A DNA stretch of 64,000 bases from Nitrospirota bacterium (GCA_963740085.1 CAVUCU010000004.1:96001-160000), one strand, 5' to 3'; counted from the stretch's first letter, positions 1,366 to 64,000 are shown. Notes: a model not told the origin generated them from the letters alone. Made by a program: numbers and translations.

Positions 1366-1501
1366 CTGCAGTTCGGAGTTTGGGGTCAGTAACAAAGAAT
1401 AAAAACTATCACTGACAAGAATTATCATTGGGAAGGCGCAATTGCGGATTTTCGCGACCTTGCGTTTCGCGGTTCGGATGAGGAAAATCAGAGAAACTTG
1501 A

Positions 1502-4285
1502 ATGGATTATAAGACGACGCTGAATCTCCCGACGACCGACTTTCCCATGAAGGCCAATTTGAAGGACCTTGAACCGCGGACGATACTGCGGTGGAAAGAA
1601 CAGGGGACCTATGGCCGCATCCAGGATAGGAACAAGGGGGGGGAAAAGTACATTCTGCATGACGGCCCGCCTTACGCGAACGGCCATATCCACATCGGCC
1701 ACGCACTGAACAAGATCCTGAAGGACATCATCGTGAAATACAAATCCATGCAGGGCTTCTCCTCGCCTTATGTACCCGGCTGGGATTGCCATGGCCTCCC
1801 CATCGAACATCAGGTGCTCAAGAATCTCGGCCCGAAAAAGGACACGATGAGCAAGGCCGAGATACGGAAACTTTGCCGGGAGTACGCCGTGAAGTTCATC
1901 GACATCCAGCGCGAGGAGTTCAAGCGCCTCGGCGTGTTCGGGGACTGGGATAATCCCTACCTCACGATGAACTATGCGTATGAGGCCGCGATCGTGCGGG
2001 AACTTGGAAAGTTCGTGGGAACGGGCGGCGTGTATAAAGGGAAAAAGCCGGTGTACTGGTGCGGGTCCTGCGAAACAGCCCTTGCCGAGGCGGAGGTTGA
2101 GTACGCGGACCACGAGTCGCCTTCCATCTCGGTCAAATTCGCGCTTCCCGATGCGGCAAAGGTGTTTCCGTCGCTCGCGGGAAAGAACGTCGCTGTGGCG
2201 ATCTGGACCACGACCCCCTGGACGCTCGTCTCGAACCTTGCAGTGGCGCTGCATCCTGAATTCGACTACGCTGCCGTTGATATCGGTTCCAACTCGGTCA
2301 TCATCGTCGCCGAGGCGCTCGCTGCGCCGTCCATGGAGAAATTCGGCATAACGGATTACAAGGTCATCGAGAAGTTCAAAGGCGGCAAACTCGAAGGCCT
2401 CAAGGCGCGCCACCCGTTCATAGACCGGGACTCTCAGGTCATTCTCGGAGAGCACGTCACGCTCGAGGCAGGCACCGGTGTGGTGCATACGGCTCCCGGT
2501 CACGGCCAGGAAGACTACGAGGCCGGCATCAGGTATGGTCTTGACGTGTATGCGCCTGTCGATCATAAGGCGAGATTCACCAAAGAGGCCGGCCAGTTCG
2601 CGGGCGAGAATGTGCACAAGGCAAACAAGGGAATCATCGATCTTCTGAAAGAAAAGAACGCGCTTCTTTCCGAGGAGAAATTATCGCACTCCTATCCCCA
2701 TTGCTGGCGGTGCAAGAACCCCGTTATCTTCCGCGCCACCGAACAGTGGTTCATTTCCATGAAGAACAATGACCTGCTCAAAAAGACCGTGGAGAACGTG
2801 CACAAGGTCACCTGGGTCCCGGGATGGGGCAAGGACCGGTTCCTCTCCATGGTCGAGAAGCGGCCTGACTGGTGCATCTCGCGCCAGCGGGCGTGGGGCG
2901 TGAACATCGTCGCATTCACGTGCACGGCCTGCGGCCAGCTGCTTCTGGACAAGTCGATCATCGACCACGTGGCGGCGATCGTCGAAAAAGAAGGCGCTGA
3001 TGTCTGGTTCACCAGGTCCGCTGCCGAACTGGTGCCGTCCGGCACTGCCTGCAAAAAGTGCGGGAAGCAGGACTTCGAGAAGGAGATGGACATTCTCGAT
3101 GTGTGGTTCGATTCGGGCGTGAGCCACGCCGCGGTACTCAAACAACGGCCGGAGCTTTCCTGGCCCGCGGACCTGTACCTCGAAGGCAGCGATCAGCACC
3201 GCGGGTGGTTCCAGTCCTCGCTTCTCACGTCCGTGGGGACCACCGGCATGGCGCCTTATCGGGCGGTGCTGACCCACGGATTCACGATGGACGGTCAGGG
3301 CAAGAAAATGAGCAAGTCGGCGGGCAATACAATCGCTCCACAGGATGTTATCGATAAGTTTGGGGCCGAGGTGCTTCGACTCTGGGTCTCGGCAGCGGAC
3401 TATCGCGATGATCAGCGGATATCCCAGGAGATTCTGACCCACCTTGCCGAGGCGTACCGCAGGATCCGGAATACGAGCCGTTATCTGCTCGGCAATCTCT
3501 CTGACTTCGATCCCGGCAAAGACAAGGTCCCGGACAAGGACCTGCTTGAGATCGATCGCTGGGCACTGCATCGGCTGCAGAAGCTGGTGCAGCGCGTGGA
3601 AAAAGCATATGACGAATTCGAGTTTCACGTGGTGTTCCATTCGCTTCACAACTTTTGCGCGGTCGACATGAGCTCGTTCTACCTCGACATCCTGAAAGAC
3701 CGGCTCTATACCGCTAAAACCGCATCGGTTGAACGGCGGTCAGGCCAGACTACCATGCATGCGATCCTCTCCGCGATGATCCGCCTCATGGCGCCGGTGC
3801 TGTCGTTCACTGCGGACGAGGTCTGGGGTTACATGAAAGAAAGCGCGGGAACAACGACTGTATTTCTTGCGGAATTCCCCAAGGTGGAAGAGAAGTATAT
3901 TGATGATGAACTTGAGGCACGATGGAACAAGATCATCGGGGTGCGCGGCGAGGCTGCGAAGGTGCTCGAGGCGCTCCGCAGGGACAAGAAGATCGGCCAT
4001 TCTCTCGACGCGGCTGTGACGCTCTATGTCGCACCGGAATTGTTCGAGCTTCTGGATAATTATAAAAAGGACCTGGCCTTCATCTTTATCGTCTCATCCG
4101 TGTCCCTGGAGAAAGAAACCGACGCGCCCGCTGATGCCTACACGAGCGATGCGATACCGGGGCTCAGGATAGCGGCCGGTCCGGCCTCGGGCAAAAAGTG
4201 CGGCCGCTGCTGGATGTATCTCGAGTCCGTGGGAACGGTAAAAGAACATCCGGAGATCTGCGACAGGTGCGCCTCGAACTTGTGA
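1502..4285 (+). CDS. ileS: Isoleucine--tRNA ligase
   Basis: DGPPYANG..HIGH, GWDCHGLP, WTTTPWT, KMSKS and a C-terminal Zn finger (CGRCW..CDRC). Confidence 0.98.
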   Translation: MDYKTTLNLPTTDFPMKANLKDLEPRTILRWKEQGTYGRIQDRNKGGEKYILHDGPPYANGHIHIGHALNKILKDIIVKYKSMQGFSSPYVPGWDCHGLPIEHQVLKNLGPKKDTMSKAEIRKLCREYAVKFIDIQREEFKRLGVFGDWDNPYLTMNYAYEAAIVRELGKFVGTGGVYKGKKPVYWCGSCETALAEAEVEYADHESPSISVKFALPDAAKVFPSLAGKNVAVAIWTTTPWTLVSNLAVALHPEFDYAAVDIGSNSVIIVAEALAAPSMEKFGITDYKVIEKFKGGKLEGLKARHPFIDRDSQVILGEHVTLEAGTGVVHTAPGHGQEDYEAGIRYGLDVYAPVDHKARFTKEAGQFAGENVHKANKGIIDLLKEKNALLSEEKLSHSYPHCWRCKNPVIFRATEQWFISMKNNDLLKKTVENVHKVTWVPGWGKDRFLSMVEKRPDWCISRQRAWGVNIVAFTCTACGQLLLDKSIIDHVAAIVEKEGADVWFTRSAAELVPSGTACKKCGKQDFEKEMDILDVWFDSGVSHAAVLKQRPELSWPADLYLEGSDQHRGWFQSSLLTSVGTTGMAPYRAVLTHGFTMDGQGKKMSKSAGNTIAPQDVIDKFGAEVLRLWVSAADYRDDQRISQEILTHLAEAYRRIRNTSRYLLGNLSDFDPGKDKVPDKDLLEIDRWALHRLQKLVQRVEKAYDEFEFHVVFHSLHNFCAVDMSSFYLDILKDRLYTAKTASVERRSGQTTMHAILSAMIRLMAPVLSFTADEVWGYMKESAGTTTVFLAEFPKVEEKYIDDELEARWNKIIGVRGEAAKVLEALRRDKKIGHSLDAAVTLYVAPELFELLDNYKKDLAFIFIVSSVSLEKETDAPADAYTSDAIPGLRIAAGPASGKKCGRCWMYLESVGTVKEHPEICDRCASNL

Positions 4286-4290
4286 TACAA

Positions 4291-4327
4291 GTTTGGAGTT
4301 GAGAGCTCAGGGTTCGGAGTAAGGAGC
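4291..4327. repeat. 7-nt period tandem repeat between ileS and lspA
   Basis: Units gtttgga/gttgaga/gctcagg/gttcgga/gtaagga; the same unit occurs after the PBP1A stop at about 1371-1391. Confidence 0.7.
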
Positions 4328-4332
4328 AATGC

Positions 4333-4836
4333 TTGAAAAATAAATATCTCCAGGCTGGAGCGATCGCGGGCATCGTGCTGGTCCTGGACCAGGTTACCAA
4401 GTATATCGTGGTGGCGCGCATCCGGCTGTATGACGTTATCATCGTTATCCCGGGCTTCTTCAACATCACCCATGTACGGAACAAGGGCGCTGCCTTCAGC
4501 ATTCTTTCCAATCTGCCGGAGTTCTGGAGAGGTTCGTTCTTCATTACGGTCACGATCATTGCCGTGGCCGTGATCATCGCCCTCATCGTTAAAACACAGG
4601 AACGCCTCCCGGTGTATGCCTTCTCGCTCATCGCGGGCGGAGCGCTGGGCAATGTGGTCGACCGTATCAGGTACGGTGAAGTGGTGGACTTTATCCAGTG
4701 GTATGTGAAATCGTACTATTGGCCATCGTTCAACGTTGCCGATTCGGCCGTTACGATCGGTGTTGTATTGCTGGCGATCGAGATGCTGTTTGGGACAAAC
4801 ACCAAATCACACGAATCGATCTCAAAACATAAATAG
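4333..4836 (+). CDS. lspA: Lipoprotein signal peptidase II
   Basis: DQVTK, NKGAAF, GALGNVVDR, VVDFI and FNVAD motifs; follows ileS. Confidence 0.96.
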   Translation: MKNKYLQAGAIAGIVLVLDQVTKYIVVARIRLYDVIIVIPGFFNITHVRNKGAAFSILSNLPEFWRGSFFITVTIIAVAVIIALIVKTQERLPVYAFSLIAGGALGNVVDRIRYGEVVDFIQWYVKSYYWPSFNVADSAVTIGVVLLAIEMLFGTNTKSHESISKHK

Positions 4837-4861
4837 TTGATGGCTGCGTAAAAGGCATTTT

Positions 4862-4929
4862 ACCGCAGAAACGCAGAGAAAACCCTTTGATTTATATTGT
4901 CCTTCTCGGCGGCTCAGCGCCTCGGCGGT
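4862..4929. repeat. Inverted short-period repeat hairpin without cargo gene
   Basis: accgcagaaacgcagagaa ... ttctcggcggctcagcgcctcggcggt. Confidence 0.7.
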
Positions 4930-4987
4930 GGATTTTAAGTATTTTCGATGTTATCCGTATTTGGAATGATAACAAAATTGTGAAAGG

Positions 4988-5809
4988 TTGATCGTGCACC
5001 CAATACTCTTCGAAATACCGGCAATCACGATCGGAGGCTGGACCATTGGACCCATCCCGATCAGGATGTACGGCCTCATGATCGGCATCGGCTTTCTCCT
5101 TGCCATTTTTCTGGCGTCCCGCCGCGCGAGAAAGGAGGGCATAGATCCCGACCGCATCATGGACCTGGGGGTGTACCTATTGCTCGCGGCCATCGTCGGC
5201 TCGCGCATCCTCTACGTGTTGACAACGCTGCGGGAATTCACTGACCACCCGCTTGATGTCTTCGCGATCTGGAAGGGGGGGCTCGTGTTCTATGGCGGCC
5301 TGCTCGCCGCCGTCCCTGTCGGGATCTGGTACGTGCGGAAGCACAGTCTGCCGGTCTGGAAGACCGCGGACATCGTGGCCCCTTCGATCGCCCTCGGACA
5401 CGGCTTCGGCAGGCTCGGCTGCTTTTTCGCCGGCTGTTGTTATGGCTCCCCGTGCAGTGGCCCGATTTGCATAACCTTCCATGATCCGCACTCGCTCGCG
5501 CCCCTGGGGGTACCGCTCTTTCCGACCCAGCTTATGGAGTCGGGCGGAGAGTTCCTGATTTTCGGCATACTCATGGTCATCTGGCGGCACAGGAAGTTCG
5601 ACGGGCAGCTCTTCTGGCTCTACCCTCTCTTTTATTCGGTCTTGCGGTTCATCATCGAATTCTTCCGGGGCGACGAGATTCGCGGCGTGTACTTCGGTGG
5701 CCTGGTCTCGACCTCGCAGATCATCGCGGTGTTCATGTTCGGGTTCTCTCTGTTCATGCTTTGGAGATTGAGCAGGACACCTGCCCGGATAAGCCGGAAC
5801 CATAAATAA
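4988..5809 (+). CDS. lgt: Prolipoprotein diacylglyceryl transferase
   Basis: IRMYG, GSRILYV, IWKGGLVFYGG, GRLGCFFAGCCYG, PTQL and RFIIEFFR motifs. Confidence 0.96.
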   Translation: MIVHPILFEIPAITIGGWTIGPIPIRMYGLMIGIGFLLAIFLASRRARKEGIDPDRIMDLGVYLLLAAIVGSRILYVLTTLREFTDHPLDVFAIWKGGLVFYGGLLAAVPVGIWYVRKHSLPVWKTADIVAPSIALGHGFGRLGCFFAGCCYGSPCSGPICITFHDPHSLAPLGVPLFPTQLMESGGEFLIFGILMVIWRHRKFDGQLFWLYPLFYSVLRFIIEFFRGDEIRGVYFGGLVSTSQIIAVFMFGFSLFMLWRLSRTPARISRNHK

Positions 5810-7783: not shown

Positions 7784-7870
7784 ATTCCCGACAACGCTAA
7801 ACCCTTCGCGAGAGGGGGACAGAAAGCTGCGGGTCTTGTACCAGCCAAGACGGCCGAGCTACCGAAGGAT
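7784..7870 (+). ncRNA. GEMM-I cyclic-dinucleotide riboswitch aptamer, A20 variant (probable 3',3'-cGAMP sensor)
   Basis: cgacaAcgctaaacccttc-gcga-gagggggacagaaagc..gggtcttg..caagacggccgagctaccg shows the GNRA-capped P2, AAAG junction and P3 of the c-di-GMP-I fold; A at 7794 is at the G20-equivalent position. Confidence 0.88.
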
Positions 7871-8807: not shown

Positions 8808-10466
8808 ATGAAACGGTTAATTATTATACTCTCGATGCTGGTTATTTCAGTTGCTATTCTGTTTGCCTCAAGCGGCGGAGGAGGCGGGGGCGGAGAAACA
8901 CCCCCAACTGGTGGAGGTACACCGCAGGGTGGAGGAGGAACAACGGGTCCCGGACTTTCAGCATCGCTCCAGCAAGGCACGTACTGGGAGTTCTTCTGGA
9001 CTACTGAATCAACGAACGCAAGCTCAGGAGGCACGACCTATAGTACAAATACAGGCCGTTTTACGGTTACCTTGGGGGCATCGGTAACCATCCAGGGCAT
9101 GCTGGTCTATCCTCTTGTCGTTAGCGGACAAACCGGCACCCCTGGCCCGGATTTCAAACCCCGGTGGACGCATGTCGGCTATTCCAGAGGTGCGCTGGTC
9201 GGGTCCACAAACGGATCTACGCTGACCACCATTCTTGATGCTTCAAAGACCTCCATGCTTGGCGGCGGATTTATCACGCAGTTCGATCCCGCAGAAACGA
9301 TCAGCATTAGTTCAGGAACCTTCTCGGGAAATTACAACCAGTTAAGCAGCATTATCGCAAGCCATGGCACGAGTAAAGGCGGTTGTCAATCGATCCTGGG
9401 CTACACGATCTGTAGCGATAGGCAAACAACATTCTCGGAGAATGAGTATTATAAGGATGGAGTCGGCCCTCTCGGCCTGAAGCGTGACATGTACTTCTCC
9501 TCCTGTGGAGGCGGTTTCTGTTCAGACCACTGGAACACGCACGTGGTCGAACTGGTCGGCACGTCGCTTACCCCTACAGATGGCAGCGTCATCAAACAAC
9601 CGCCATGGGCCGCGGTTAGGCCCTTGAACACGCCAAGAACGGAGCATTTAGCTGCGGCTTACAACGGAAAGATCTATGTCTTTGGTGGATATGATACTAA
9701 TAAAACGCATCTGACCAGCGTTGAAATCTATGATCCTGTTGCTAATACTTGGACGGCGGGTGCACCTATTCCAGACTCCAATCCTTACGCTGTGGCAAAG
9801 ATTGTCGACAGCAAGATCTATTTGATTCCGACGGTCGGTACTGCGATTCGTATATACGACCCCATTGGGAATAGCTGGTCTTCCGGAGCTGCAATGGCAT
9901 TCCATGATGCGTCCGTGGACGGAGATGTTTGGTCTGACGCGACCGGCACCTACATCGTAAATGCAACCCCTGATGGCGCTTCTTCGAACGTCCTCAAAAT
10001 CTATGCCTACCGGCCCAGTGACAATAGCTTGTGGTATGGCTCTGATCTATCACCTTACACTGACCATCGATGGGGCGCGGTCACCATCGTCGGGAATAAT
10101 CTGTACGTTATTGGAGGGTACCGTCAATATTTGTCCCCGAGTGTAGTCTATAAGAACACTCTTCTCTATGATCTCTCGACAGATACCTGGTATCAGGGTG
10201 TCGGTACTCTGAATGTTGCACGGTATTCGGCAAAAGCCGTTACTTTCAATGGAGCTGCGGTCGTGCTGGGTGGTGAGGATGTGGTCAAGGAGCTTCGTGA
10301 CGTTGAAACCTACAATGAGACGACCAAGACTTGGAGCAAGCTTCCGTCCATGCTCAAGGCGAGGTCGCATTTCGCCGCTGTGGTCATGAGCGGAAAGATC
10401 TACGTCATCGGGGGCACGGCGGGCGGCACCACGTTTGGAAATGTCGAGGCATATACGCCGAACTGA
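8808..10466 (+). CDS. Exported Kelch-repeat beta-propeller protein
   Basis: Signal peptide and Gly linker; Kelch repeats GKIYVFGG..VEIYDP..W, NLYVIGG, GKIYVIGG. Confidence 0.88.
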   Translation: MKRLIIILSMLVISVAILFASSGGGGGGGETPPTGGGTPQGGGGTTGPGLSASLQQGTYWEFFWTTESTNASSGGTTYSTNTGRFTVTLGASVTIQGMLVYPLVVSGQTGTPGPDFKPRWTHVGYSRGALVGSTNGSTLTTILDASKTSMLGGGFITQFDPAETISISSGTFSGNYNQLSSIIASHGTSKGGCQSILGYTICSDRQTTFSENEYYKDGVGPLGLKRDMYFSSCGGGFCSDHWNTHVVELVGTSLTPTDGSVIKQPPWAAVRPLNTPRTEHLAAAYNGKIYVFGGYDTNKTHLTSVEIYDPVANTWTAGAPIPDSNPYAVAKIVDSKIYLIPTVGTAIRIYDPIGNSWSSGAAMAFHDASVDGDVWSDATGTYIVNATPDGASSNVLKIYAYRPSDNSLWYGSDLSPYTDHRWGAVTIVGNNLYVIGGYRQYLSPSVVYKNTLLYDLSTDTWYQGVGTLNVARYSAKAVTFNGAAVVLGGEDVVKELRDVETYNETTKTWSKLPSMLKARSHFAAVVMSGKIYVIGGTAGGTTFGNVEAYTPN

Positions 10467-10611
10467 TGCGTATCAGACAGGTGGCATATCAGCAGCCGCA
10501 GCGTAACGGGGGACTGTCCCGGAGTGCTCTGTCGCAGCAGCACCGCATGATTCCATCACACTGCGGCTTAGTAAGTATGGTTCTATGGATACTTCTGCTA
10601 AGGAGCGTATT

Positions 10612-12117
10612 ATGAAAACGCGAGAGCTCTCATTAATTGCCGCCTTAGTGGTCGTGTATCTGATGGGGGGAGTCGTGGCATATGGTGGCATTGGTCCGGT
10701 ATTGGACAAGATTTCTCCTTCCCTTGCCTATGATATTCAGAATAACCGATATCTCGCCGTGTATGAAAAAGACGTTTACATTAACGGGCAGCTCATTGAT
10801 GCAAATGGAACGCCATCCTCCGCTGAATTCGCTATTTCTGATCCTGCAATAAACCAACGCGGTTCCTCGGTGGCCTATGATGGGGTAAATGACAGGTTCA
10901 TCGTGGTGTGGGCGCGTTACGGCGCAGGTATCTACGGCCAACTCGTTAACGCAACAGGCGGTCTGATCGGCGGCAATTTTATCATAAGCGGTTATCAGAA
11001 CGTGGACAGGCCATCAGTTGCTTATGACAGTATCAATCGGACTTTTCTCGTTGTATGGGAAGACCCGCGCAACTCGACTGGATCCAATACGGACATTTAC
11101 GGTCAGATCGTGAACTCTGATGGAAGTCTTATTGGTGGCAACATAGCCGTCTCAACCGCCGTGAATCACCAATTCCATCCCTCAACAACCTATGACAGTG
11201 TTAATCAGAGATTCTTCGTGGTATGGATGGACAGCCGAATTACTGACTACGACCTCTACGGTCAGCTTGTGGACTATGGGGGAGCCCTGATCGGCTCTAA
11301 TTTTGTCGTCTCTGCCGCTCATGGCATTATGACGGATCCTGTTGTTGTTTATGATGTCACTCATCAGAAGTATCTCGTCGCATGGTCTGACGATCGAGAT
11401 CTTGCATCCACGGGATACAATATTTATGGTCAAATAGTCAACGCAGACGGTATCGTGAGCAGCGATAGCTTCACGATCTCGAACGCCGAGGGCGATCAAT
11501 CTTCCCCTGCGGTGGCTTTCGATGCCGCAACCAATACGTTCATGGTGGCATGGCAGGATGATCGAATGGCTGGTAGTTCGGGATCTGACATATACGGGCA
11601 ATTTGTGGATTCGGGCGGAGGATTGGTTGGAACGAATTTCTCGGTAAACAGCGCAGCCGGAAATCAACGTTATCCTATGGTTGCCTATAATTCTATTGCG
11701 AAAAATTTCATGGTCGCCTCTGAAAACCGGAGCGTTGCACCGGCTGATCTTTCTTTTGATCTTGTCGGCAGCGCAGCCTTGAATAATACCGCTCTAGACG
11801 AAGGGGGTGGAGGAGGGGGAGGCTGCTTCATCGCAACCGCAGCATACGGCAGTTCAATGGCCGAGGAGGTAAGGGTTCTTCGGGAGTTCAGGGATAATTA
11901 TCTCCTTACCAATGCGGTGGGCCGAGCATTCGTAAAGCTCTATTACCAATACTCACCTGCACCAGCGGAGTATATTGCCCGCCATGAGTTGCTCAGGACA
12001 GCCACAAGGTTAGCTCTAACGCCCGTCGTGTTCGGCGTCAGGCAACCTGTAGCTGTACTGCTTGTAATCACGGGTATCACTATCGTGTTTGTGAAAAGAT
12101 CGAGGATAGCTCGATAG
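10612..12117 (+). CDS. Exported repeat protein with a C-terminal CFI-box-CTERM-type sorting domain
   Basis: About 6 repeats of PSVAYD..FLVVW.D.R..DIYGQ; [27 protein letters not shown], then a TM segment and basic tail. Confidence 0.85.
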
Positions 12118-12132
12118 ATAAGGAGGATCGTC

Positions 12133-13944
12133 ATGAAAAGGGGAAGGCTGTTACTTATCACTGTTCTTCTGTCGTTTTTTACGGCGGTGTCGCTGGTTAA
12201 CTGCGGTGGAGGTGGCGGAGGAGGTGGTGGAGGTACTCCACCACCTCCCGTATCCAGTAATGCTAACCTTGCATCGCTCACTGCTTCTCATGGATTAGTG
12301 AACCCGTCTTTTGATCCCGCAACGACGGTATATGCCTCCATGTTCATTGGGCAGACGTCGATCACTATTACGCCTACAGCGGCGGATGCAGGTGCAACGA
12401 TCACGGTCAATGGGGCAGCCGTGGCATCGGGACATCAGTCTCAAGCCATTTCACTGAATCCCGGTCAGAACACGGTAACCGTTGCTGTGACTGCGGCAGA
12501 CGGGGTGACGACGAAGAACTATACGATCACCGCGAATTTGCTGTCGCAGGAAGCATACGCCAAGGCATCCAATACCGATGCACCTGATCTGTTTGGCTGG
12601 AGCGTAGCCCTATCGGGAGATACTCTCGCGGTAGGTGCAGTTTGGGAGGCGAGCAACGCTACAGGGATTGACGGTGATCAGTCTGACAATACTGAATGGC
12701 AGACCGGAGCGGTGTATGTTTTTATCCGTAGCGGATCGACGTGGACCCAGCAGGCATATATCAAGGCGTCTAACAGCGGTGGATTAGACTGGTTTGGATA
12801 CAGCATGTCCCTGGAGGGTGATACTCTCGCCGTAGGGTCTCCTTGGGAGGGCAGCAGCAACGGCAACCAGGGAGACAATAGTGCATCCGGGAGCGGGGCG
12901 GTGTATGTGTTCACCCGAAATGGTACGACCTGGACCCAGCAGGCGTATATCAAGGCATCGAACATCGATGCCGACGATAATTTCGGCTATAGCGTATCTC
13001 TCTCGGGAGACACGCTTGCCGTAGGCGCGCCTGAAGAAGACAGCAATGCTAAAGGTGTCAACGGCGACGAGAACGATAATAGTGCACCCGTGAGCGGCGC
13101 GGTGTATGTGTTCACCCGCACCGGTACGACATGGAACCAGCAGTCATATATCAAAGCATCGAATACTGATGCATATGACTGGTTTGGCTACAGCGTATCC
13201 CTCTCGGGTAATACGCTTGCTGTCGGGGCGCCTGAAGAAGCAAGCAATGCCCAAGGTATAAACGGCGACCAGGCGGATAATAGTGCAATTTATAGCGGGG
13301 CTGCATATGTGTTCATCCGGACCGGAGCGACTTGGACCCAGCAGGCGTACATCAAGGCATCGAACAGCATGGAAGGCGCCTGGTTTGGCCGGAGTCTATC
13401 TCTCTCGGGTGACACACTCGCCGTAGCGGCGCCTGATGAAAGCGGCGGTTCCACGGGGATCAATGGCGATCAGACGGTTAACGGCGCAACATCTATGAGC
13501 GGGGCGGTATATGTATTCACCCGGACCGGGGTGACCTGGACCCAGCAGGCCTATATCAAGGCATCGAATACTGGTCAAACCGATACGTTTGGCATAAGTG
13601 TGTGCCTTTCGGGTGACAGCCTCGCTGTCGGTGCTCCTAATGAAGCCAGTGTCGCAAAAGGGATCGGTGGTGATCAGGCAGATAACAGCGGGGTCGGGGC
13701 GGGAGCTGCTTATTTGTTCACCCGGACCGGCACGACCTGGACCCAGCAGGCGTATATCAAGGCATCGAACACCGATGCACGTGATACCTTTGGATTTAGT
13801 GTTGCCCTTTCAGGTGACACGCTTGCTGTTGGAGCACCTGACGAAGGCAGCAATGCTAAAGGAATCAACGGCGACCAGACGGACAACAGCGCTTTCATTA
13901 GCGGTACTGGCCAAGGGGCTGGAGCGGCATACATTTTGCGCTAG
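12133..13944 (+). CDS. Lipoprotein with cadherin-like beta-sandwich and FG-GAP/integrin-alpha repeats
   Basis: Lipobox LVN-C plus poly-Gly; VTAADGVTTKNYTI; repeated AYIKASNT..FG.SVSLSGDTLAVGAP..GAVYVF. Confidence 0.9.
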   Translation: MKRGRLLLITVLLSFFTAVSLVNCGGGGGGGGGGTPPPPVSSNANLASLTASHGLVNPSFDPATTVYASMFIGQTSITITPTAADAGATITVNGAAVASGHQSQAISLNPGQNTVTVAVTAADGVTTKNYTITANLLSQEAYAKASNTDAPDLFGWSVALSGDTLAVGAVWEASNATGIDGDQSDNTEWQTGAVYVFIRSGSTWTQQAYIKASNSGGLDWFGYSMSLEGDTLAVGSPWEGSSNGNQGDNSASGSGAVYVFTRNGTTWTQQAYIKASNIDADDNFGYSVSLSGDTLAVGAPEEDSNAKGVNGDENDNSAPVSGAVYVFTRTGTTWNQQSYIKASNTDAYDWFGYSVSLSGNTLAVGAPEEASNAQGINGDQADNSAIYSGAAYVFIRTGATWTQQAYIKASNSMEGAWFGRSLSLSGDTLAVAAPDESGGSTGINGDQTVNGATSMSGAVYVFTRTGVTWTQQAYIKASNTGQTDTFGISVCLSGDSLAVGAPNEASVAKGIGGDQADNSGVGAGAAYLFTRTGTTWTQQAYIKASNTDARDTFGFSVALSGDTLAVGAPDEGSNAKGINGDQTDNSAFISGTGQGAGAAYILR

Positions 13945-14004
13945 CGATGAAGGAGTGCGATTGCATGTAAGAAGCGGATAATGAATTGCGTGCGGTTAGT
14001 GCTG

Positions 14005-14036
14005 GAGGAGAGAACGACCCGTTCTCTCCTCTTTTT
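14005..14036 (+). terminator. Intrinsic terminator closing the surface-protein cluster
   Basis: gaggagagaacg-acc-cgttctctcctc followed by ttttt. Confidence 0.85.
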
Positions 14037-15126: not shown

Positions 15127-15172
15127 GGCAACAAATGGCGGACAGTTTACTGTCGCTCATGACAACTCAAAA

Positions 15173-15676
15173 GATTAAGGAGAAAGGGGGAAATTGGGGA
15201 GAAACGGAGATAAAGTCTGGAAAAATGAACCGGGTTTAGTATCATCAAATATCTTCCAATCGGCTCCCCTTCGACCTATTTTTTCACTAATTCAACCCTT
15301 CTCACATCAAGGGTAAAATCTGAAAAATTGACCAACAGGCCGACTTCTTTTTGCAAAGCTTTCAAATATGACCTCACTTGTGCATAGTATTTCTTACTTA
15401 AACCTTCTACTGTTTTTAGCTCAACTACGATATCACCTTCAATCAATAGGTCGATTTTATGACTTCCAACTTGAATATCACAATATCTAACCCTGACTTC
15501 CTTCTCTGATTCAAAGACAATTTTTTGTTTCTCAAGTTCAATCTTCAAGGCATTATGATAAATGCTTTCTAAAAAACCTGGACCTAATTCCTTGTGTACA
15601 ATTATACAAGCGTTGATAATTTTATCCGTTAAGTCCTCTTTTCCCCATTTCTCCATCTTCTCCCTTTCTCCTTATC
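15173..15676. repeat. Inverted arrays of a 9-nt unit enclosing the GxxExxY gene
   Basis: Left arm 15173-15210 gattaaggagaaagggggaaattggggagaaacggaga; right arm 15634-15676 tcctcttttccccatttctccatcttctccctttctccttatc. Confidence 0.8.
15276..15656 (-). CDS. GxxExxY protein (PD-(D/E)XK nuclease-like)
   Basis: VHKELGPGFLESIY, IDLLIEGDIVVELK, QVRSYLK, GLLVNF; markedly AT-rich relative to its neighbours. Confidence 0.92.
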   Translation of the reverse strand: MEKWGKEDLTDKIINACIIVHKELGPGFLESIYHNALKIELEKQKIVFESEKEVRVRYCDIQVGSHKIDLLIEGDIVVELKTVEGLSKKYYAQVRSYLKALQKEVGLLVNFSDFTLDVRRVELVKK

Positions 15677-15773
15677 GTTTTACAACTGATTTTAATCTGT
15701 GCCATCAAACATTGCAAGCGGATTGTTCGAAAATCAATTGACATCCCTGTCGGGAACATGCTAAGAATTGCCC

Positions 15774-17200: not shown

Positions 17201-17287
17201 GCCGAAGTGGTGGAACTGGTAGACGCGCTGCGTTCAGGGCGCAGTGGGAGCAATCCCGTGGGGGTTCGAGTCCCCCCTCCGGCACCA
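17201..17287 (+). tRNA. tRNA-Leu (anticodon CAG)
   Basis: GCCGAAG acceptor stem, D-loop GG, ctgcg-ttCAGgg-cgcag anticodon arm, long variable arm ggga-gcaa-tccc, GTTCGAGTC T-loop, encoded CCA. Confidence 0.97.
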
Positions 17288-19958: not shown

Positions 19959-20100
19959 AGTTGCCTCCTTAAAAAATGTCGTAAGAGACCGAAGATCGGC
20001 AATGCAGACCGGCTTATTCAGCGGAGAATACGCCGACTGTTATATATCATCATGAATATATTCCTGATCTCAGACGATGTCAATAATGTATAAAATGCAT

Positions 20101-20204
20101 TGACCAATCATTGGCAAAGGGAAATCCACGGTGATATATTGCACGCGTTGTTGCTGCCGTTGGGAAGCGTGTGCCTCAAGTGGGTGTCCCCCCTCCGGCA
20201 CCAT
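20101..20204. repeat. About 104-bp degenerate direct repeat ending in the tRNA-Leu 3' end (att arm, copy 1)
   Basis: Aligns throughout with 29847-29949. Confidence 0.9.
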
Positions 20205-20260
20205 TTTCTTTCATATATATTTTCGATTAATAAAATCTGTGGCCCTTCGCTCGGCACCAT

Positions 20261-20625
20261 CCTGAGGTGCACAACCTTTCAGGCACCTAGCCCAACCGGA
20301 ATGATATTGTCAATTTTCCTCGGCAGCTTATATCAACAAAGAAACAAAACCGTGCAACATCTTCCTCACGTATAACCTCAAACCTATCAGAGAAAACCCA
20401 GGTTAAGTCTTTTTGTTTGACGGCAGTCATTTCTTTAAGGATATCACCGGACATCTTTAAAGCTCGTGAATACTCGTTTACAGGAAGCAGAACTTTGTTT
20501 GGCTGACGTTTGATATTCTCATACCTTTCAATTTCTTCCTTTAGTTTTTCACGTGGTCCTGTGAATTTGCCGACCTGATTGCTAATGACAACGTTCAGGA
20601 CATCGTGGACAAAAATAATGTTCAC
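20261..20625 (-). pseudogene. C-terminal remnant of a putative integrase, copy 2
   Basis: Coiled-coil-like REKLKEEIERYE, then ILKEMTAVKQKDLTWVFSDRFEVIREEDVARFCFF; homologous to 17289-17468 and likewise pointing into an att copy. Confidence 0.6.
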
Positions 20626-20639
20626 GACAAGCAGGCACT

Positions 20640-20950
20640 TTATCGCAGTTGGTACTTGTATTCTTCGACCTGGATTGAATCCAGGAAGAGCTTCAGCTTT
20701 TGTTCTTTGGCGGAACCGAGAACATTTCGCCCCAGATGCTCATCCTGCAATCGCTTCGGATAAAACGAACGGGATTATAATAACCTCCACCGTCTTATCC
20801 AAGAAGTGTTTTGAAACATCATTCTTGCTCGGAAAGATCAATTTTATCTCCGACGCGGCCAGCGCCTTGAGCGGTGTGCTCCCCTTGAGCTTACTGCAGC
20901 GGTAGGCGCTGTTATGGTGGTGTTCAAAAGCCTGGGTTGATGCTGTGGCT
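20640..20950 (-). mobile_element. Frameshifted C-terminal fragment of a DDE (integrase-core) transposase
   Basis: Pieces in shifting frames: AFEHHHNSAYRCSKLKGSTPLKAL / VRFIRSDCRMSI / GEMFSVPP / KEQKLKLFLDSIQVEEYKYQLR*; recognised by resemblance only. Confidence 0.55.
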
Positions 20951-29949: not shown

Positions 29950-29961
29950 GTGGTAAACAGC

Positions 29962-30085
29962 AAATTCCAAATTACGAATCCCGAATAAATTCCAATTATC
30001 AAATTTCAATGACCCGGAGTCAGAAATTTGGTCTTTGATTCTTCTCTGAGCTTATTGGCGATTTGGTGCTCGTTATCTGGAATTT
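29962..30085. repeat. Inverted 7-nt period array without cargo gene
   Basis: aaattcc aaattac gaatccc gaat..aaatttc aatgacc versus atttggtgctcgttatctggaattt. Confidence 0.75.
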
Positions 30086-30094
30086 CCCCATCGT

Positions 30095-31461: not shown

Positions 31462-31514
31462 GGGCAGTACTCGGTCATTTATTAGTTAAATTTTATCGTA
31501 ACTACTCAGATGTG

Positions 31515-31597
31515 GCCGCAAAAGAACGCAAGGAACTCAAAGAAAAAACCTGAATCCATGTATTTCAGTTTTAATTCTCTCTGCGATCCTTCGCGGC
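31515..31597. repeat. Inverted 10-nt period array without cargo gene
   Basis: gccgcaaaagaacgcaaggaactcaaaga ... tctctgcgatccttcgcggc. Confidence 0.7.
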
Positions 31598-31758
31598 AAA
31601 CGGATTTTGACCTGAGTAGAGACAATCTTTCTAACGGCTATGCTCCTTTCTTCGGTTGGCTCTGTCGTCTGGTCCAACCGGTCCATAATCAAGAAAGTGA
31701 GGATGGCCTTTTTCGATTTTGACCTTTCGGTTCCGGCTTGTCCGGGTTAGGGGAAAGT

Positions 31759-34898: not shown

Positions 34899-35031
34899 GG
34901 TTAATCGTGCAAAGCACCGGGTTCCAGGTCCTGAGTGCTGACTGAACGGCAACAATGTTTAAATTTGATACTAGAAGCTTATCCTCTTTCTAACGCTCGG
35001 ACTTTTAAGCCCGTAGCTGGCGAGGCCACTT

Positions 35032-41443: not shown

Positions 41444-41449
41444 GCCCAC

Positions 41450-42805
<1,356 letters not shown>

Positions 42806-42840: not shown

Positions 42841-42936
42841 ACCGCGAAGGCGCGAGGGACGCCAAGGAGCGATAATGATTCTATGGTTAAATACCAGAAG
42901 TCATGATTTCCTTGGCGCCCTTCGCGCCTTCGCGAT
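42841..42936. repeat. Inverted 9-nt period array without cargo gene
   Basis: accgcgaaggcgcgagggacgccaagga ... tccttggcgcccttcgcgccttcgcgat. Confidence 0.85.
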
Positions 42937-43893: not shown

Positions 43894-44001
43894 GCGAAAC
43901 TATAATCTAAAATCGGAACAATTGCAAGGGGGAGGGGTGGAGGGGAGTGGAAAAGAGTGATTATTAGTCGTCTCAAAAAAAATGAATAGGATTCCAAGGC
44001 T

Positions 44002-47210: not shown

Positions 47211-47748
47211 AGCCACGAGTCTCTGGAGCCTAAGGAGTTCGAGGAGTCTAAAAGAGGCTAGTTCTAGGAGTCTAAAGAGTCTGAGGAGTGTACAAATTTA
47301 ATGAGTTTTAGGAGTTTTCTTCTCCGATAGGTAAGTAGAAAGCCCCATGAGCATTCGGGATATTTCATCGGCAATATCATATAACTTTTTGAAGACATTT
47401 TCGGTAATATATGTTTGATCAAATGCTATATACAGTGCAGCTTGAACTTCTGCGCATGAACCATGAGCTTGAACAAGATATTGTTTTAGTTCCTTATCTG
47501 TCCTTCTGCCAAAATCCTCCGCAATGTTAAGCATGATTGAAACAGTTGCTCTTTTCATTTGGTCTTTAGGGGATAATCTTTTGCAAAAGCGCCTTTGCTC
47601 GTTTCCGTGTAGATCAATTTGGTAAATTCTCGTGCTTTCTGCCATGCCTGAATATCCTCAAATCTCTTAATAGGAGCCATCAGATTTTTCCTATTCAGAA
47701 TTGAACTCTTCAAACTCTTCAGACTCTAAAAACTCTACAGACTCTCAG
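47211..47748. repeat. Inverted arrays of a 9-nt unit enclosing the four-helix-bundle gene
   Basis: Left arm ggagcctaa ggagttcga ggagtctaa .. ggagtctaa agagtctga ggagt; right arm aactcttca aactcttca gactctaaa aactctaca gactctca. Confidence 0.9.
47298..47680 (-). pseudogene. Four-helix-bundle (23S rRNA IVS / Avd-like) protein, frameshifted at about 47566
   Basis: MAPIKRFEDIQAWQKAREFTKLIY..KDYPL in one frame, KDQMKRATVSIMLNIAE..AHGSCAEV in the next; one A missing from ctaaagac. Confidence 0.88.
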
Positions 47749-47749
47749 C

Positions 47750-50367: not shown

Positions 50368-50456
50368 CGGGGGAATATAACATAATCAGGGTCATGGGGC
50401 AAGGGGCATGCGTTTGACAGGGGCATGCGCTTGAATAAATGTCAACAATGCAAAAT

Positions 50457-54584: not shown

Positions 54585-54620
54585 AGAGAGTCAGGAGTCA
54601 GGAGAACACACTACAACAGT

Positions 54621-57073: not shown

Positions 57074-57078
57074 AGCAA

Positions 57079-57180
57079 AGAGGGACGAGAGACAATGGGG
57101 AGATGGACGAAAGACGAGGGACGAAAAGTCGTTGCGTCCATCGTCCAAGCGAACGCAGCGAGCGGTCATCTGTCATCCAC
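57079..57180. repeat. Degenerate inverted 7-nt period array after cbiO
   Basis: gagggac gagagac .. gatggac gaaagac gagggac gaaaagt versus cgtccat cgtccaa .. gtcatct gtcatcc. Confidence 0.7.
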
Positions 57181-59612: not shown

Positions 59613-60818
59613 ATGAAGTTTAACACAATAGAAGAGGCTGTTGAAGATATCAAGAACGGCAAGATGGTCATCCTTGTTGATGATGAGGACCGGGAGAACG
59701 AAGGAGACCTTACCATGGCTGCGGAGGCCATAACGCCGGAGGCCATAAATTTCATGGCCATGCACGGTCGCGGGCTCATCTGCCTGTCGCTCACGTCAGA
59801 GCGCGTGGAACAACTGCAACTCCCGATGATGACCACGGACAACACATCGTCGTTCGGAACGGCGTTCACTATTTCCATCGAGGCGAAAAAGGGCGTGACC
59901 ACGGGCATTTCCGCGGCTGACCGGGCCGTGACGATCAAAACGGCCATAGACCCCAAGTCCAAGCCAGCGGACCTGGCCCGGCCCGGGCATGTGTTCCCGC
60001 TCCGCGCACGAGTGGGCGGCGTGCTTCAGCGCGCCGGCCAGACCGAAGGGTCCGTGGACCTTGCCCGGCTTGCAGGATTGTATCCGGCAGGCGTGATCTG
60101 CGAGATCATGAACGATGACGGCACAATGTCCCGTGTCCCGCAGCTCATGGAATTCGCCAAAAAGTTCCACCTAAAGATCATCACGGTGAAGGACCTGATC
60201 GCCTATCGGATCAGAAAAGAGTCGCTTGTGCGCAGGGTAGCGGTCACGAAAATGCCGACCAGCCACGGGAGCGACTTTACCGCCATCCTCTATGCGAATG
60301 ACATCGATCGGATGAACCACATCGCTCTGGTAAAGGGAGAGATCAAGCCCGAGGATGAGGTCCTCGTGCGGGTACACTCCGAGTGCCTCACCGGCGACGT
60401 ATTCGGTTCGCTCAGGTGCGACTGCGGCGACCAACTCCACAACGCAATGAAGATAATCGACGATGAGGGCAAGGGCGTGATCCTCTACATGCGCCAGGAA
60501 GGTCGCGGCATAGGCATTGAAGGCAAGCTCAAGGCATACGAACTTCAGGACAAGGGCAAGGACACGGTTGAGGCGAACCTTGCGCTCGGATTCAAGGCCG
60601 ATCTCAGGGACTACGGCGTCGGTGCACAGATCCTGCGCGACCTTGGTGTCCGCAAGATCCGGCTGCTTACGAATAATCCCAAAAAGATCGTGGGTCTCGA
60701 AGGCTATGGCTTGACCGTCGTATCGCGCATACCGATCGAAACGCATCCCCATGCCAAGAACATCCATTACCTTAAGGTGAAGAAGAACAAGATGGGTCAT
60801 ATACTAGAGAAAGTCTAA
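59613..60818 (+). CDS. ribBA: Bifunctional DHBP synthase / GTP cyclohydrolase II
   Basis: [38 protein letters not shown]. Confidence 0.97.
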
Positions 60819-60844
60819 AAGTACAGAGTACAAAGTACAAAGTG
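60817..60844. repeat. 7-nt tandem repeat (aaagtac x4) between ribBA and ribH
   Basis: aaagtac agagtac aaagtac aaagtgc. Confidence 0.8.
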
Positions 60845-60862
60845 CATGGCATGGAGGGTTTG

Positions 60863-62456: not shown

Positions 62457-62600
62457 ACACGGAAAAACCGGATATTACCATCTGATAAAAGCGGGTGAAA
62501 ATAGGGTCAGCTATTCGTGAGAGCCCATCACCCAACGGGTGAACTGATTTCGTTCGGAACATCCGATTTTATCCGATGTTGATCCGCATCTATCCATGGC
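62456..62600. repeat. Degenerate inverted ~10-nt period array upstream of purB
   Basis: gacacggaaaaaccggat..ctgataaaagcgggt versus atccgatttt atccgatgttg atccgcatct atccatggc. Confidence 0.65.
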
Positions 62601-62642
62601 AAATGCCGTTTCCAAAATGAATAACGTGACCAGGAGTATCCG

Positions 62643-63944
62643 ATGATCCCTCGCTACAGCAGGCCGGAGATGACCCGTCTCTGGGAACCCGAGAACAGAT
62701 ACCGCACCTGGCTCGAGGTTGAGATCCTTGCCTGCGAGGCCAACGCAAAACTGGGGCTGATCCCGGCAAGGGCGCTCGCAACCATCAAGAAAAAAGCCGA
62801 CTTCAAGGTCAAGCGGATCGATGCCCTTGAAAGGACGGTGAAACACGACGTCATCGCCTTCCTGACCGCCGTCGGCGAGCATATCGGCCCTGATTCCCGG
62901 TACGTCCATCTCGGGCTCACATCCTCAGATGTCCTCGACACCTCGCTTGCCGTGCTCATGCGACGATCATCGGACATTATCGTCGACGATATCCGCCTCG
63001 TTCTCAAAACGCTCAAGAAGAAGGCTTTGCGGTATAAAAAAACGGCAATGATCGGCCGTTCACACGGTGTGCATGCAGAGCCGGTGACCTTCGGCCTCAA
63101 GATGGCCCTCTGGTTCGAGGAAATGCAGCGCGCCCTCGATCGCATGCTGCGGGCACGGGACGTGATCAGCGTCGGCAAGGTTTCGGGTGCAGTCGGGACC
63201 TTCGCGAACATCGACCCTTTTGTAGAGATGTATGTCTGCCGCAAACTGGCGCTTAAACCCGAACCGGTTGCGACACAGGTGGTGCAGCGCGACCGGCACG
63301 CCGAGTTTCTGACGGTGCTTGCGCTCATTGCGTCGTCGATCGAAAAATTCTCCCTTGAACTCCGCCATCTTCAACGGACCGAGGTTCTTGAGGCGGAGGA
63401 GTATTTTTCAGAAGGCCAGAAGGGTTCCTCGGCAATGCCGCATAAACGGAACCCGATCTCGGCCGAGAATCTGTCCGGTCTTGCCCGCGTCGTGCGCGCG
63501 AACTCCATCGCGGCGATGGAGAATGTCGCTCTCTGGCACGAGCGGGACATCAGCCATTCGTCGGTCGAGCGGATCATCATACCCGACAGCACCATCCTCG
63601 TTGACTACATGCTTGCGCGTTTCAATACCCTGATCGACGGGCTTTTTGTTTATCCCAAGAACATGCAACGCAATATGGCCATCTCCCGGGGGCTCTTTCA
63701 TTCGGAGACCGTGATGCTTGCACTTGTTGGCAAGGGGATCACTCGCGAGGCCGCATATTCCACTGTTCAGAGAAACGCGATGGATGTATGGAAACACGGC
63801 GGGGATTTCAAGCAGCTTTTGAAGAGCGACAAGGATATTCGCAAATATCTGAGCAGCAGGGAGATCGACGAGTGTTTTGACCTTTCACATACGCTCAGGA
63901 ACGTTGATTATATTTTCAAGAGGGTATTTAAAAAAAACCAGTAG
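62643..63944 (+). CDS. purB: Adenylosuccinate lyase
   Basis: MIPRYS, KHDV, GRSHG, GSSAMPHKRNP, HERDISHSS. Confidence 0.97.
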   Translation: MIPRYSRPEMTRLWEPENRYRTWLEVEILACEANAKLGLIPARALATIKKKADFKVKRIDALERTVKHDVIAFLTAVGEHIGPDSRYVHLGLTSSDVLDTSLAVLMRRSSDIIVDDIRLVLKTLKKKALRYKKTAMIGRSHGVHAEPVTFGLKMALWFEEMQRALDRMLRARDVISVGKVSGAVGTFANIDPFVEMYVCRKLALKPEPVATQVVQRDRHAEFLTVLALIASSIEKFSLELRHLQRTEVLEAEEYFSEGQKGSSAMPHKRNPISAENLSGLARVVRANSIAAMENVALWHERDISHSSVERIIIPDSTILVDYMLARFNTLIDGLFVYPKNMQRNMAISRGLFHSETVMLALVGKGITREAAYSTVQRNAMDVWKHGGDFKQLLKSDKDIRKYLSSREIDECFDLSHTLRNVDYIFKRVFKKNQ

Positions 63945-64000
63945 TCTCCCGAATGCACGAAGTCTCGAAGTAAACCATGCAGGTTTTTTTAGTGTCTTCG

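Follow-up and report, generated by a model that had tools for sequence, protein, structure and literature searches.

Loaded cassettes of the window

We analysed a 64-kb chromosome stretch of a Nitrospirota bacterium (GCA_963740085.1, CAVUCU010000004.1:96001-160000; the whole 64,000 nt are called the window, and positions are counted from its first letter), focusing on short-period repeat arrays between its genes and on the small genes that two pairs of these arrays enclose. The window has a GC content of about 0.53 and carries densely packed housekeeping genes, mostly on the plus strand. They include ileS-lspA-lgt-rluD, rlmN, dtd, hisS, pgm-eno, a pilB/gspE-type ATPase gene, an alpha-glucan phosphorylase gene, nikR, cbiMNQO, ribE-ribBA-ribH-nusB, and purB. 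The 90%-identity clusters of the enolase and PurB of the window contain proteins labelled 'Nitrospirota bacterium'. A first-pass annotation of the sequence had proposed that about 15 intergenic sites belong to one family of mobile cassettes or mRNA intervening sequences (IVSs), in which two arms fold into a stem around a cargo gene and loss of the cargo leaves hairpins or single arms.

Two sites are cassettes of about 0.5 kb, each with inverted arms able to pair and one cargo gene (Table 1). As the first-pass annotation had stated, the enclosed genes are small, AT-rich, and unrelated to each other. One encodes a GxxExxY protein (PF13366) and the other a four-helix-bundle protein (PF05635), and their GC contents are 0.34 and 0.38, respectively, versus 0.53 for the window. 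In both cassettes, a purine-rich array lies 5′ of the gene on the gene's strand, and a complementary array lies 3′. The arms of both can form a stem of 40–50 bp, with duplex energies between −48 and −51 kcal/mol and z values between −4.5 and −5.4, as the proposed folding of the arms around the cargo requires.

The GxxExxY cassette sits in the leader of rlmN, with its 3′ arm 39 nt upstream of the rlmN start codon. Its 5′ arm (15630–15690) holds the ribosome-binding site and start codon of the GxxExxY gene, pairs with 15160–15225 (z −4.5 to −4.7), and has a homologous arm in two external loci, L001 and L002. The four-helix-bundle cassette occupies the entire gap between two convergent stop codons; its 5′ arm abuts the stop codon of a glgP-like gene, and its 3′ arm begins at the base after the stop codon of the pilB/gspE-type gene. 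The C-terminal four-fifths of its cargo gene lie at 47298–47645 (−) (TIGR02436, E 1e-21; PF05635, E 4e-24; homologue hits cover 78–93%), and the 39 codons of the N-terminal part, which begin at 47680, are in a different frame, giving two hidden Markov model (HMM) fragments. Thus, the four-helix-bundle gene is frameshifted.

The same architecture in other genomes

A genome search with the GxxExxY protein yielded four loci, in a Nitrospinota, a Nitrospirota, a Pirellulales, and a candidate phyla radiation (CPR) bacterium, and all four carried short-period arms on both sides of the gene. The external sample (n = 25) consisted of these loci, all seven GxxExxY matches on plasmids, and 14 of 27 plasmid records with a four-helix-bundle gene. 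By inspection, short-period arms were present on both sides at 20 of the 25 loci, which represent at least eight phyla.

Flank statistics were obtained for 27 cargo loci and 79 other open reading frames (ORFs) of the same loci as controls. The median z of the flank-to-flank duplex was −3.09 for cargo genes versus 0.05 for controls (p 9e-8), and the periodicity of the weaker flank was 15/21 versus 11/21 (p 9e-9). Periodicity and complementarity were found together at 13 of the 27 cargo loci and at none of the 79 controls; in this sample, the repeats are commoner beside these gene families than beside other ORFs. The purine-rich arm was 5′ in 22 of 27 loci (p 4e-5), and the GC content of the cargo was lower than that of its locus in 26 of 27.

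The arm units were varied (GGGGAAA, AGTCAGG, GTAGGGA, GGTGACA, GGGTGTA, GGCAGAA, CACAGAGGA, CGCGAAGG, GCGGAAT, and others), and the 3′ arm was the complement of the 5′ arm whatever the unit. Thus, complementarity is conserved rather than a particular sequence. A correlation of unit type with cargo family, which had been suggested as a check, was absent from the sample. G/A-only arms accompany both cargo families, and arms resembling CGCGAAGG/CACAGAGGA flank GxxExxY genes as well as a four-helix-bundle gene located in a 23S rRNA gene.

The properties of the cargo proteins bear on a different explanation, in which the cassettes are free-standing homing-endonuclease-type elements. In such a scheme, the GxxExxY protein would cleave intercistronic sites that lack a cassette, and the break would be repaired by copying a cassette into it, leaving the arms as repair by-products or as a protection of the element. 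The GxxExxY protein query detected more than 4,600 relatives, and the residues of the D...ExK core (D69, E79, and K81) are invariant or near-invariant in 45 relatives. Its AlphaFold2 model (predicted local distance difference test score of 90) has Cas4 and lambda exonuclease as the nearest folds, and defence-system libraries gave only weak Cas4 matches for it. This predicted nuclease-like fold is consistent with homing, as is the precise placement of cassettes between conserved genes. However, four-helix-bundle cargo, which lacks a nuclease fold and has XCC0516 (2GSC) as its nearest solved relative, is found within an identical architecture and in some cases with arms of the same type (G/A-only); the defence-system libraries gave no match for the four-helix-bundle proteins. 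In addition, cassettes persist with broken cargo. We consider homing very unlikely.

Several loci showed further features. A third cargo family was considered for an ORF of L018 (297–690) that lies between arm-like arrays, but this ORF had no match in Pfam or NCBIfam. Phages as vectors were rejected, as tblastn searches with both cargo types against 50,697 phage records gave no match. In the Pirellulales locus (L003, 5736–5875), the last codons of the GxxExxY gene and the 3′ arm are tandemly duplicated. In Anabaena sp. 90 (L021, 2638–2908), a GGTGACA/GGGAACA array of about 270 nt lies upstream of a four-helix-bundle gene, between cas6 and cas4.

Alleles, mobility, and decay

We compared the cassettes of related loci with each other. 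The GxxExxY cassettes of the window, L002, and L001 share 73–79% DNA identity over the ORF, with homology from the 5′ arm onwards. No alignment was seen between their flanks, and the hosts and neighbouring genes all differ. Related units were likewise found in unrelated contexts and in different phyla. Two Nostoc plasmids, L012 and L018, carry different cassettes at adjacent junctions of one operon, and in each the alternative junction is a bare stop-GTT-start or stop-start sequence without repeats.

The clearest allelic series came from conjugative plasmids of Nostocales, at the 1152/777-nt junction. Three records are filled at this junction, and in seven plasmids the flanks match at 97.5–98% identity while about 430 nt are lacking. 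In L026, one of the seven empty alleles, which was read at base level, a 13-nt spacer separates the stop and start codons. The 419-nt cassette recurs alone, at 77–82% identity, in five other plasmids at two further junction types. At base level, it begins right after the stop codon and ends right before the start codon in L018, L029, L030, and L031. The number of units per arm among orthologues is 3, 5, or 8. Thus, what is present or absent between alleles is the whole unit including its arms. The mobility asserted in the first-pass annotation is supported at two levels: presence and absence between flanks of about 98% identity, and occurrence of the same cassette at different junctions.

Decayed forms were found at the same junction and elsewhere. 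At the 1152/777-nt junction, L027 retains the 5′ arm followed by some 105 nt of the ORF, with the host start codon immediately after this remnant, and L028 carries an ORF-less hairpin with the same unit as the filled allele (z −6.6). In the Nitrospirota locus L002, a four-helix-bundle remnant between TGCGGAT arms keeps residues 1–38 and 84–117 of a 118-aa relative. Cargo genes degrade through frameshifts and deletions until an ORF-less hairpin or a lone arm is left. The L023 cassette is split by an ISL3 element, which separates the 5′ arm from the gene. The earlier claim that cargo loss leaves hairpins or single arms was thus confirmed for the Nostocales junction, where absent, filled, single-arm, and ORF-less hairpin states all occur, but not for the ORF-less sites of the window, in which no remnants were found.

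Insertions were located at three kinds of place: at host junctions, where they lie precisely between one stop codon and the start codon that follows; within a 23S rRNA gene; and, in frame, in a tolerant region of a protein. In the leuS gene of the CPR bacterium (Moraniibacteriota; L004, 8383–12003), a 1,206-aa ORF contains a GxxExxY domain and both arms, all translated in frame. This leuS gene also contains a second inserted segment, which by eye is alpha/beta hydrolase-like. ORF-less inverted arm pairs lie within annotated or predicted coding sequences (CDSs) in L008 (4496–4614), L019 (5549–5802), and L002 (5726–5799); these encode an FAD-dependent protein, an ABC transporter, and a response-regulator-like ORF, with apparent in-frame read-through. 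Arms and cargo inside coding sequences indicate insertion at the DNA level, with survival depending on tolerance.

Intergenic arrays of the window

Every intergenic region of 30 nt or more (n = 45) was tested for periodicity, using 500 dinucleotide shuffles each and lags of 7–10; site 63945, at the window end, lies outside this test. Six regions had p ≤ 0.01 (0.45 expected) and ten had p ≤ 0.05 (2.25 expected). The ten significant regions start at 4286, 41444, 60819, 47211, 47681, 29737, 54585, 57074, 34899, and 43894. The periodic sites of the first-pass annotation are therefore largely real, and two sites, 34899 (array 34917) and 43894 (array 43929), can be added to its list. Values above 0.05 were obtained at 1371 (0.23), 4862 (0.08), 15127 (0.09), 15657 (0.20), 31515 (0.13), 51889 (0.13), 59523 (0.27), and 62456 (0.61). 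In the 15657 region, the arm overlaps the CDS, and Tandem Repeats Finder (TRF) detects an array there despite the p value. The 42806 region is borderline in periodicity (p 0.052), yet it forms by far the strongest hairpin in the window.

TRF reported arrays at 8 of the 16 listed sites (15640–15671, 41450–41500, 42910–42934, 47266–47289 with 47704–47745, 54588–54604, 57080–57124, 60818–60843, and 62561–62586). Regions with at least 15/21 self-matches numbered seven in 8.9 kb of non-coding DNA versus seven in 55 kb of coding DNA. The seven coding regions all have a period of 9, 10, or 11, and five of them have period 9, as from codon repeats. According to a count from inspected sequences, a stop codon lies no more than 7 nt from the array start in 12 of 17 cases, in line with the earlier statement that arrays often begin there. 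The unit sequence differs between most sites, as had also been noted, and no sequence is common to the window sites.

Table 1 Repeat features of the window. p, shuffle test of periodicity; TRF, detected by Tandem Repeats Finder.
Feature	Position	Strand	Properties
GxxExxY cassette, 5′ arm	15630..15690	−	Purine-rich, ~8-nt units of GGAGAAA type; TRF 15640–15671, period 8
GxxExxY / PDDEXK_3 gene	15276..15656	−	Intact cargo; 126 aa; GC 0.34; TIGR04256 E 2.5e-37, PF13366 E 5e-37
GxxExxY cassette, 3′ arm	15160..15225	−	Pyrimidine-rich on the gene's strand; pairs with 5′ arm
Four-helix-bundle cassette, 5′ arm	47690..47749	−	9-nt units of GAGTCTnnn type; TRF 47704–47745, period 9; p 0.004; duplex z −4.7 to −5.4
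Four-helix-bundle (PF05635, '23S rRNA IVS protein') gene	47298..47680	−	Frameshifted; GC 0.38
Four-helix-bundle cassette, 3′ arm	47211..47297	−	TRF 47266–47289; p 0.004
ORF-less hairpin after eno	42843..42934	+	26-nt arms, 8–9-nt units (CGCGAAGG type), loop ~40 nt
ORF-less hairpin filling the pgm-eno spacer	41447..41512	+	7-nt units of TGCGGAT type; TRF; p 0.002; fold z −3.35
Single array, ileS-lspA gap	4288..4328	+	About six 7-nt units; p 0.002; no fold; ends in lspA ribosome-binding site
Single array, cbiM to cbiN-like gene	54585..54608	+	GAGTCAG x2.4; TRF; p 0.02
Single array, upstream of ribH	60815..60848	+	AAGTACA x3.7, overlaps ribBA stop codon; TRF score 45; p 0.002; no fold
Degenerate array after cbiO	57077..57150	+	7-nt units, partial inverted portion; TRF 61% matches; p 0.024; fold z 0.1
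Long, weak, imperfect hairpin upstream of bamD	29955..30092	+	AAATTCC-type units; p 0.018; fold z −1.5 and −2.1
Single array, 18 nt after RuBisCO-like gene	34915..34946	+	7-nt units; p 0.004; no fold; not in first-pass annotation
G/A-rich array between two minus-strand genes	43926..43962	+	Opposite to host genes; p 0.012; no fold; not in first-pass annotation
Weak candidate, lspA-lgt	4860..4932	+	~8-nt units, two partly complementary arms; p 0.08; fold z −0.4 and −1.6
Weak candidate hairpin, cysG-N-type gene to transketolase gene	31512..31600	+	p 0.13; fold z −1.4 and −2.1
Weak candidate, upstream of purB	62458..62600	+	~10-nt units, two distant arms; TRF 62561–62586; p 0.61; fold z −2.0

Ordinary intrinsic terminators were rejected as the identity of the periodic sites. 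A terminator scan of positions 1–60000 called none of them, and the compact GC stem, 3–8-nt loop, and T tail of intrinsic terminators were not found at these sites. The real terminators of the window, at 14004–14032 and 50488–50459, are compact GC hairpins with T tails.

Among the ORF-less sites, clear folds were found only at 42830–42945 (z −10.0; minimum free energy of −62 kcal/mol for the 42843–42934 hairpin) and 41444–41521, and weak folds at 29962, 31515, 62456, and 4862. We compared the window sites with the arms of external loci. Shared 8-mers covered 10.4% of positions in the window sites versus 4.2% in the rest of the window, driven by 41450, 42841, 54585, and 29962. The hairpin after eno shares 8-mers with the L011 GxxExxY cassette, in its 5′ arm, and the TGCGGAT unit of the pgm-eno hairpin is that of the arms around the decayed four-helix-bundle gene in L002. 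The unit at 54585–54608 is identical to that in arms of Nostocales four-helix-bundle cassettes, and the AAATTCC-type unit at 29955–30092 also occurs in ORF-less hairpins of L002.

Such arrays might instead be host regulatory sites for a global DNA- or RNA-binding protein (integration host factor/HU, CsrA, S1, or a cold-shock protein), with the enclosed genes being incidental. Several single arrays of the window end inside the ribosome-binding site of the next gene, and many array units contain GGA or GGAG. Similar arrays have been published as regulator sites. In Geobacter metallireducens, tandem hepta- and octanucleotides form paired sites on opposite strands at variable distance, also within genes, and were read as sites of a global regulator (PMC2700814). 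TAACTGA arrays are found in Beggiatoaceae, cyanobacteria, and Bacteroidetes, and those of Beggiatoaceae lie just upstream of start codons and were read as sites of a translational regulator (PMC4679880). However, the filled alleles gain the arrays together with the cargo, the empty junction is array-free, and the arms are mutually reverse-complementary whatever the unit. The variation of the unit from site to site within one window also fits one regulator poorly. We therefore regard regulatory sites as quite unlikely.

Relationship to rRNA intervening sequences and other known systems

The proposed intervening-sequence nature received support from one external cassette. On plasmid AZO_p2 of Azospirillum lipoferum (L022), a complete 23S rRNA gene (match 1792–4990) contains a PF05635 gene flanked by period-7 arms. 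As this cassette lies within a 23S rRNA gene, it is a true, classical IVS. The 23S rRNA IVSs of Leptospira, Coxiella, and Brucella resemble the window cassettes in their size (about 0.43 kb), long-stem inverted repeats, PF05635-family ORF, GC content below that of the host, sporadic distribution, and occurrence in ORF-carrying and ORF-less forms; the IVS described by Warrier (2016) is 428 nt long, has a terminal stem of 28 bp, carries an S23p ORF, and is cleaved by RNase III (PMC4990558). The window cassettes differ from these IVSs in lying between protein-coding genes, in having tandem short-period arrays as arms, and in the presence of a second, unrelated cargo family (GxxExxY) in the same build. 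They share the terminal complementary stem and, in one of the two, the PF05635 ORF with IVSs but not the location in a 23S gene, and no rRNA was matched by Rfam anywhere in the window.

Heptamer arrays and short tandemly repeated repetitive (STRR) sequences have been on record since 1990. Intergenic heptamer arrays of Xanthomonas and Nostoc occur singly or as convergent pairs near the upstream ORF (PMC4692102), and STRR hairpins were described in Nostoc (PMC2670836). These arrays resemble the window sites in consisting of tandem 7–8-nt units that are mostly intergenic, close to the upstream stop codon, and single or in convergent inverted pairs; they are sometimes found inside genes and undergo insertions and deletions in 7-nt steps. 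They differ in that the literature describes one unit per genome and a regulatory or quadruplex role, whereas the unit in the window varies by site. Tandem intergenic units of about 7 nt occur in the window above chance, but a few genome-specific units, which characterise STRR sequences, were not seen in these 64 kb.

Heptamer arrays and IVSs are each already known. No paper found in our literature search, which reached neither subscription journals nor the NCBI/TIGRFAM model comments, joins the repeats to these cargo genes or to IVSs, and no description of the cassettes as a class was found in the literature searched. In PMC4679880, the terms S23, intervening, and helix bundle were not found. 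We also compared the cassettes with further element types.

Correia/nemis elements of Neisseria are conserved in sequence, duplicate a TA target, and lack an ORF, and they form mRNA hairpins that are cut by RNase III. Like the cassettes, they are small, have terminal inverted repeats, lie between genes in operons, and are co-transcribed, with the Correia hairpin being an RNA-processing site. The cassettes differ in their variable tandem arms, the absence of a consistent duplication, and a non-transposase gene in full forms; the conserved sequence and target-site duplication of Correia elements and miniature inverted-repeat transposable elements were thus not found, apart from a possible TAA duplication at one junction. 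Rickettsia palindromic elements are selfish palindromes that protein-coding genes tolerate within their reading frame, like the insertions in L004 (leuS), L008, L019, and L002, but they have their own sequence, no cargo gene, and no tandem-unit arms.

Repetitive extragenic palindromes (REP) and bacterial interspersed mosaic elements (the REPIN-RAYT system) do not match either, as the arms are variable and no Y1 (RAYT-type) transposase was found among the 71 ORFs scanned in the window. Integron cassettes, which have a single attC hairpin each and form arrays beside intI, differ in that the cassettes here have arms on both sides of the gene and are solitary, and no integrase was found in the window.

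Class assignment and proposed mechanism

The cassettes are best filed as IVS-type elements that occupy operon junctions, have arms built of tandem arrays, and carry cargo of two families. We consider it likely that the window carries members of a widespread class of small, mobile, decaying, selfish cassettes of this type. The unit of about 0.42–0.55 kb would consist of two inverted arms of tandem 7–9-nt units that bracket a gene. The 5′ arm, purine-rich on the gene's strand, would supply the ribosome-binding site and sometimes the start codon, and the 3′ arm would be its complement. In the transcript, the arms may pair into a long stem that insulates the host operon, and this stem is probably cut by RNase III, as suggested by the precedent of 23S rRNA IVSs. 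The arms may grow by replication slippage and stay complementary by template switching.

Most ORF-less hairpins of the window, and possibly its single arrays, would be decayed or ORF-less members of the class. Shared units and the series seen elsewhere suggest the link of the ORF-less sites to the cassettes, and by analogy the single arrays of the window may also descend from them.

Several observations weigh against this assignment. Five of the 25 external cargo loci lack a clear two-arm build. L005 has a short non-periodic inverted repeat, L011 has the 5′ arm only, and L006 and L009 are ambiguous; in a Fusobacteria plasmid (L007, 2900–3430), the GxxExxY gene lies between direct, not inverted, repeats of about 50 nt. 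The 14 four-helix-bundle plasmid loci were picked to avoid duplicates and are a non-random sample. None of the four loci from the genome search is orthologous to the window site, and the allelic series is known from Nostocales, another lineage. With wide flanks of 145 nt, the GxxExxY arms of the window reach only z −0.37; shuffled purine and pyrimidine tracts also pair. A target duplication is possible at one junction (TAA) and was not found at two others. Transposase and recombinase families had no match among the 71 window ORFs, so the earlier statement that no transposase is visible holds.

Within the window, six of the sites in the original list (1371, 4862, 31515, 51889, 59523, and 62456) are individually indistinguishable from chance, and that part of the list is weak. 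No fold was found at 4286, 54585, 60815, 57074, 59520, 34899, and 43920, which were therefore counted as single arrays; with clear folds at 42841 and 41450 only, the description of the sites as usually two inverted arms was overstated. Three single arrays have no 8-mers in common with external arms, including that at 60815–60848. HMMs built from cargo homologue sets detected no cargo remnant in any six-frame fragment of the ORF-less sites, and neither did Pfam searches of 60 loop fragments (E ≤ 1) and tblastn with a second four-helix-bundle subfamily. A weak cargo match inside the ORF 42946–43374 was rejected because this ORF encodes a zincin-like peptidase.

These negative results are what would be expected if the ORF-less sites and single arrays were simple-sequence repeats, mRNA-stabilising hairpins, or terminators that arose in place by slippage, unrelated to the cassettes. 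Heptamers are over-represented in many bacteria independent of cargo (PMC4692102), and a T run follows the 41444 stem. On the other hand, no periodic site was called as a terminator in positions 1–60000, and three sites (41450, 42841, and 54585) have units that match those in the arms of loaded or decaying cassettes at other loci. The Nostocales junction also shows an ORF-less hairpin, a single arm, and a filled state with a common unit. An origin in place is thus unlikely in our view, although it retains some weight.

We also examined the mismatches within the arms. On the sense strand, G.U exceeded A.C by 48 to 36 (p 0.23; L007, L014, and L023 left out). As G.U is not significantly more frequent than A.C, selection on pairing at the RNA rather than the DNA level has no support from the sequence, and this too counts against the proposed scheme. 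The absent asymmetry is compatible with pairing at the DNA level, as would apply if the arrays acted as non-B DNA (G-quadruplex or cruciform) with a structural role. G-rich heptamers of Xanthomonas and Nostoc, which occur as inverted pairs, form quadruplexes (PMC4692102). However, most units of the window (AAGTACA, TGCGGAT, GAGTCTnnn, and AAATTCC) have no G-runs, and a structural role of this kind is extremely improbable.

A broader proposal extends the IVS-type assignment and is offered tentatively, as possible but doubtful. Heptamer and STRR arrays, 23S rRNA IVSs, and the four-helix-bundle and GxxExxY orphan families, both very large, could be facets of one mobile class that inserts at stop-start junctions, rRNA helix tips, and protein linkers and is removed or insulated via the arm stem. 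Most hairpins and arrays of short period between genes would then derive from decayed members of this class. The mobility intermediate could consist of excised RNA or hairpin DNA with the cargo proteins (a putative nucleic-acid-binding pentamer and a Cas4-like nuclease), and this would be a transposition route without a transposase.

If the assignment is correct, heptamer arrays, which have been read as regulator sites, quadruplexes, and STRR sequences, would have a common origin with rRNA IVSs, and two of the commonest small bacterial gene families of unknown function would share in it. Four-helix-bundle genes in cas, fatty-acid, ribonucleotide-reductase, and conjugation operons would then be inserts and not components of these systems; 18 of them are listed as cas-associated (PMC3936711). 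The cassettes would also make it possible to study, in a tractable setting, how DNA is inserted precisely between stop and start codons, and Nostoc/Trichormus plasmids carry absent, filled, and decayed alleles.

Other features of the window

A class-A penicillin-binding-protein gene at the window start is split into overlapping ORFs, 9–848 and 787–1365 (+). Transpeptidase models match each of them, and the split reflects a frameshift or an error in the sequence. A c-di-GMP-I-GGC riboswitch lies at 7787–7867 (+) (67.5 bits; gathering score 59), upstream of an unassigned 156-aa ORF. It is followed at 8808–13944 by a cluster of Kelch-like, CFI-box-CTERM, and FG-GAP/cadherin-like proteins. Within this cluster, a 201-nt tandem repeat (x5, 12890–13892, +) inside a 603-aa protein corresponds to ordinary FG-GAP protein repeats.

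Two paralogous elements of about 90 nt, at 20111–20206 and 29858–29948 (+), lie behind near-consensus promoters (10–11 of 12 matches, extended −10). Both end like the 3′ end of the tRNA-Leu(CAG) gene at 17201–17287, and neither had an Rfam match at the gathering score. They could be small-RNA genes or integration-site remnants. The first lies in a 1.2-kb AT-rich segment (19959–21171, GC about 0.44) with overlapping ORFs at 20287–20625 (−) and 20579–20905 (+), for which no Pfam or NCBIfam family match was obtained.

Upstream of fdhD, a 17-nt unit is repeated 1.9 times at 50402–50434, beside the strong terminator at 50488–50459 (−). At 31738–34898 (+), a transketolase-like gene is followed directly by a RuBisCO-like (MtnW-type) gene.

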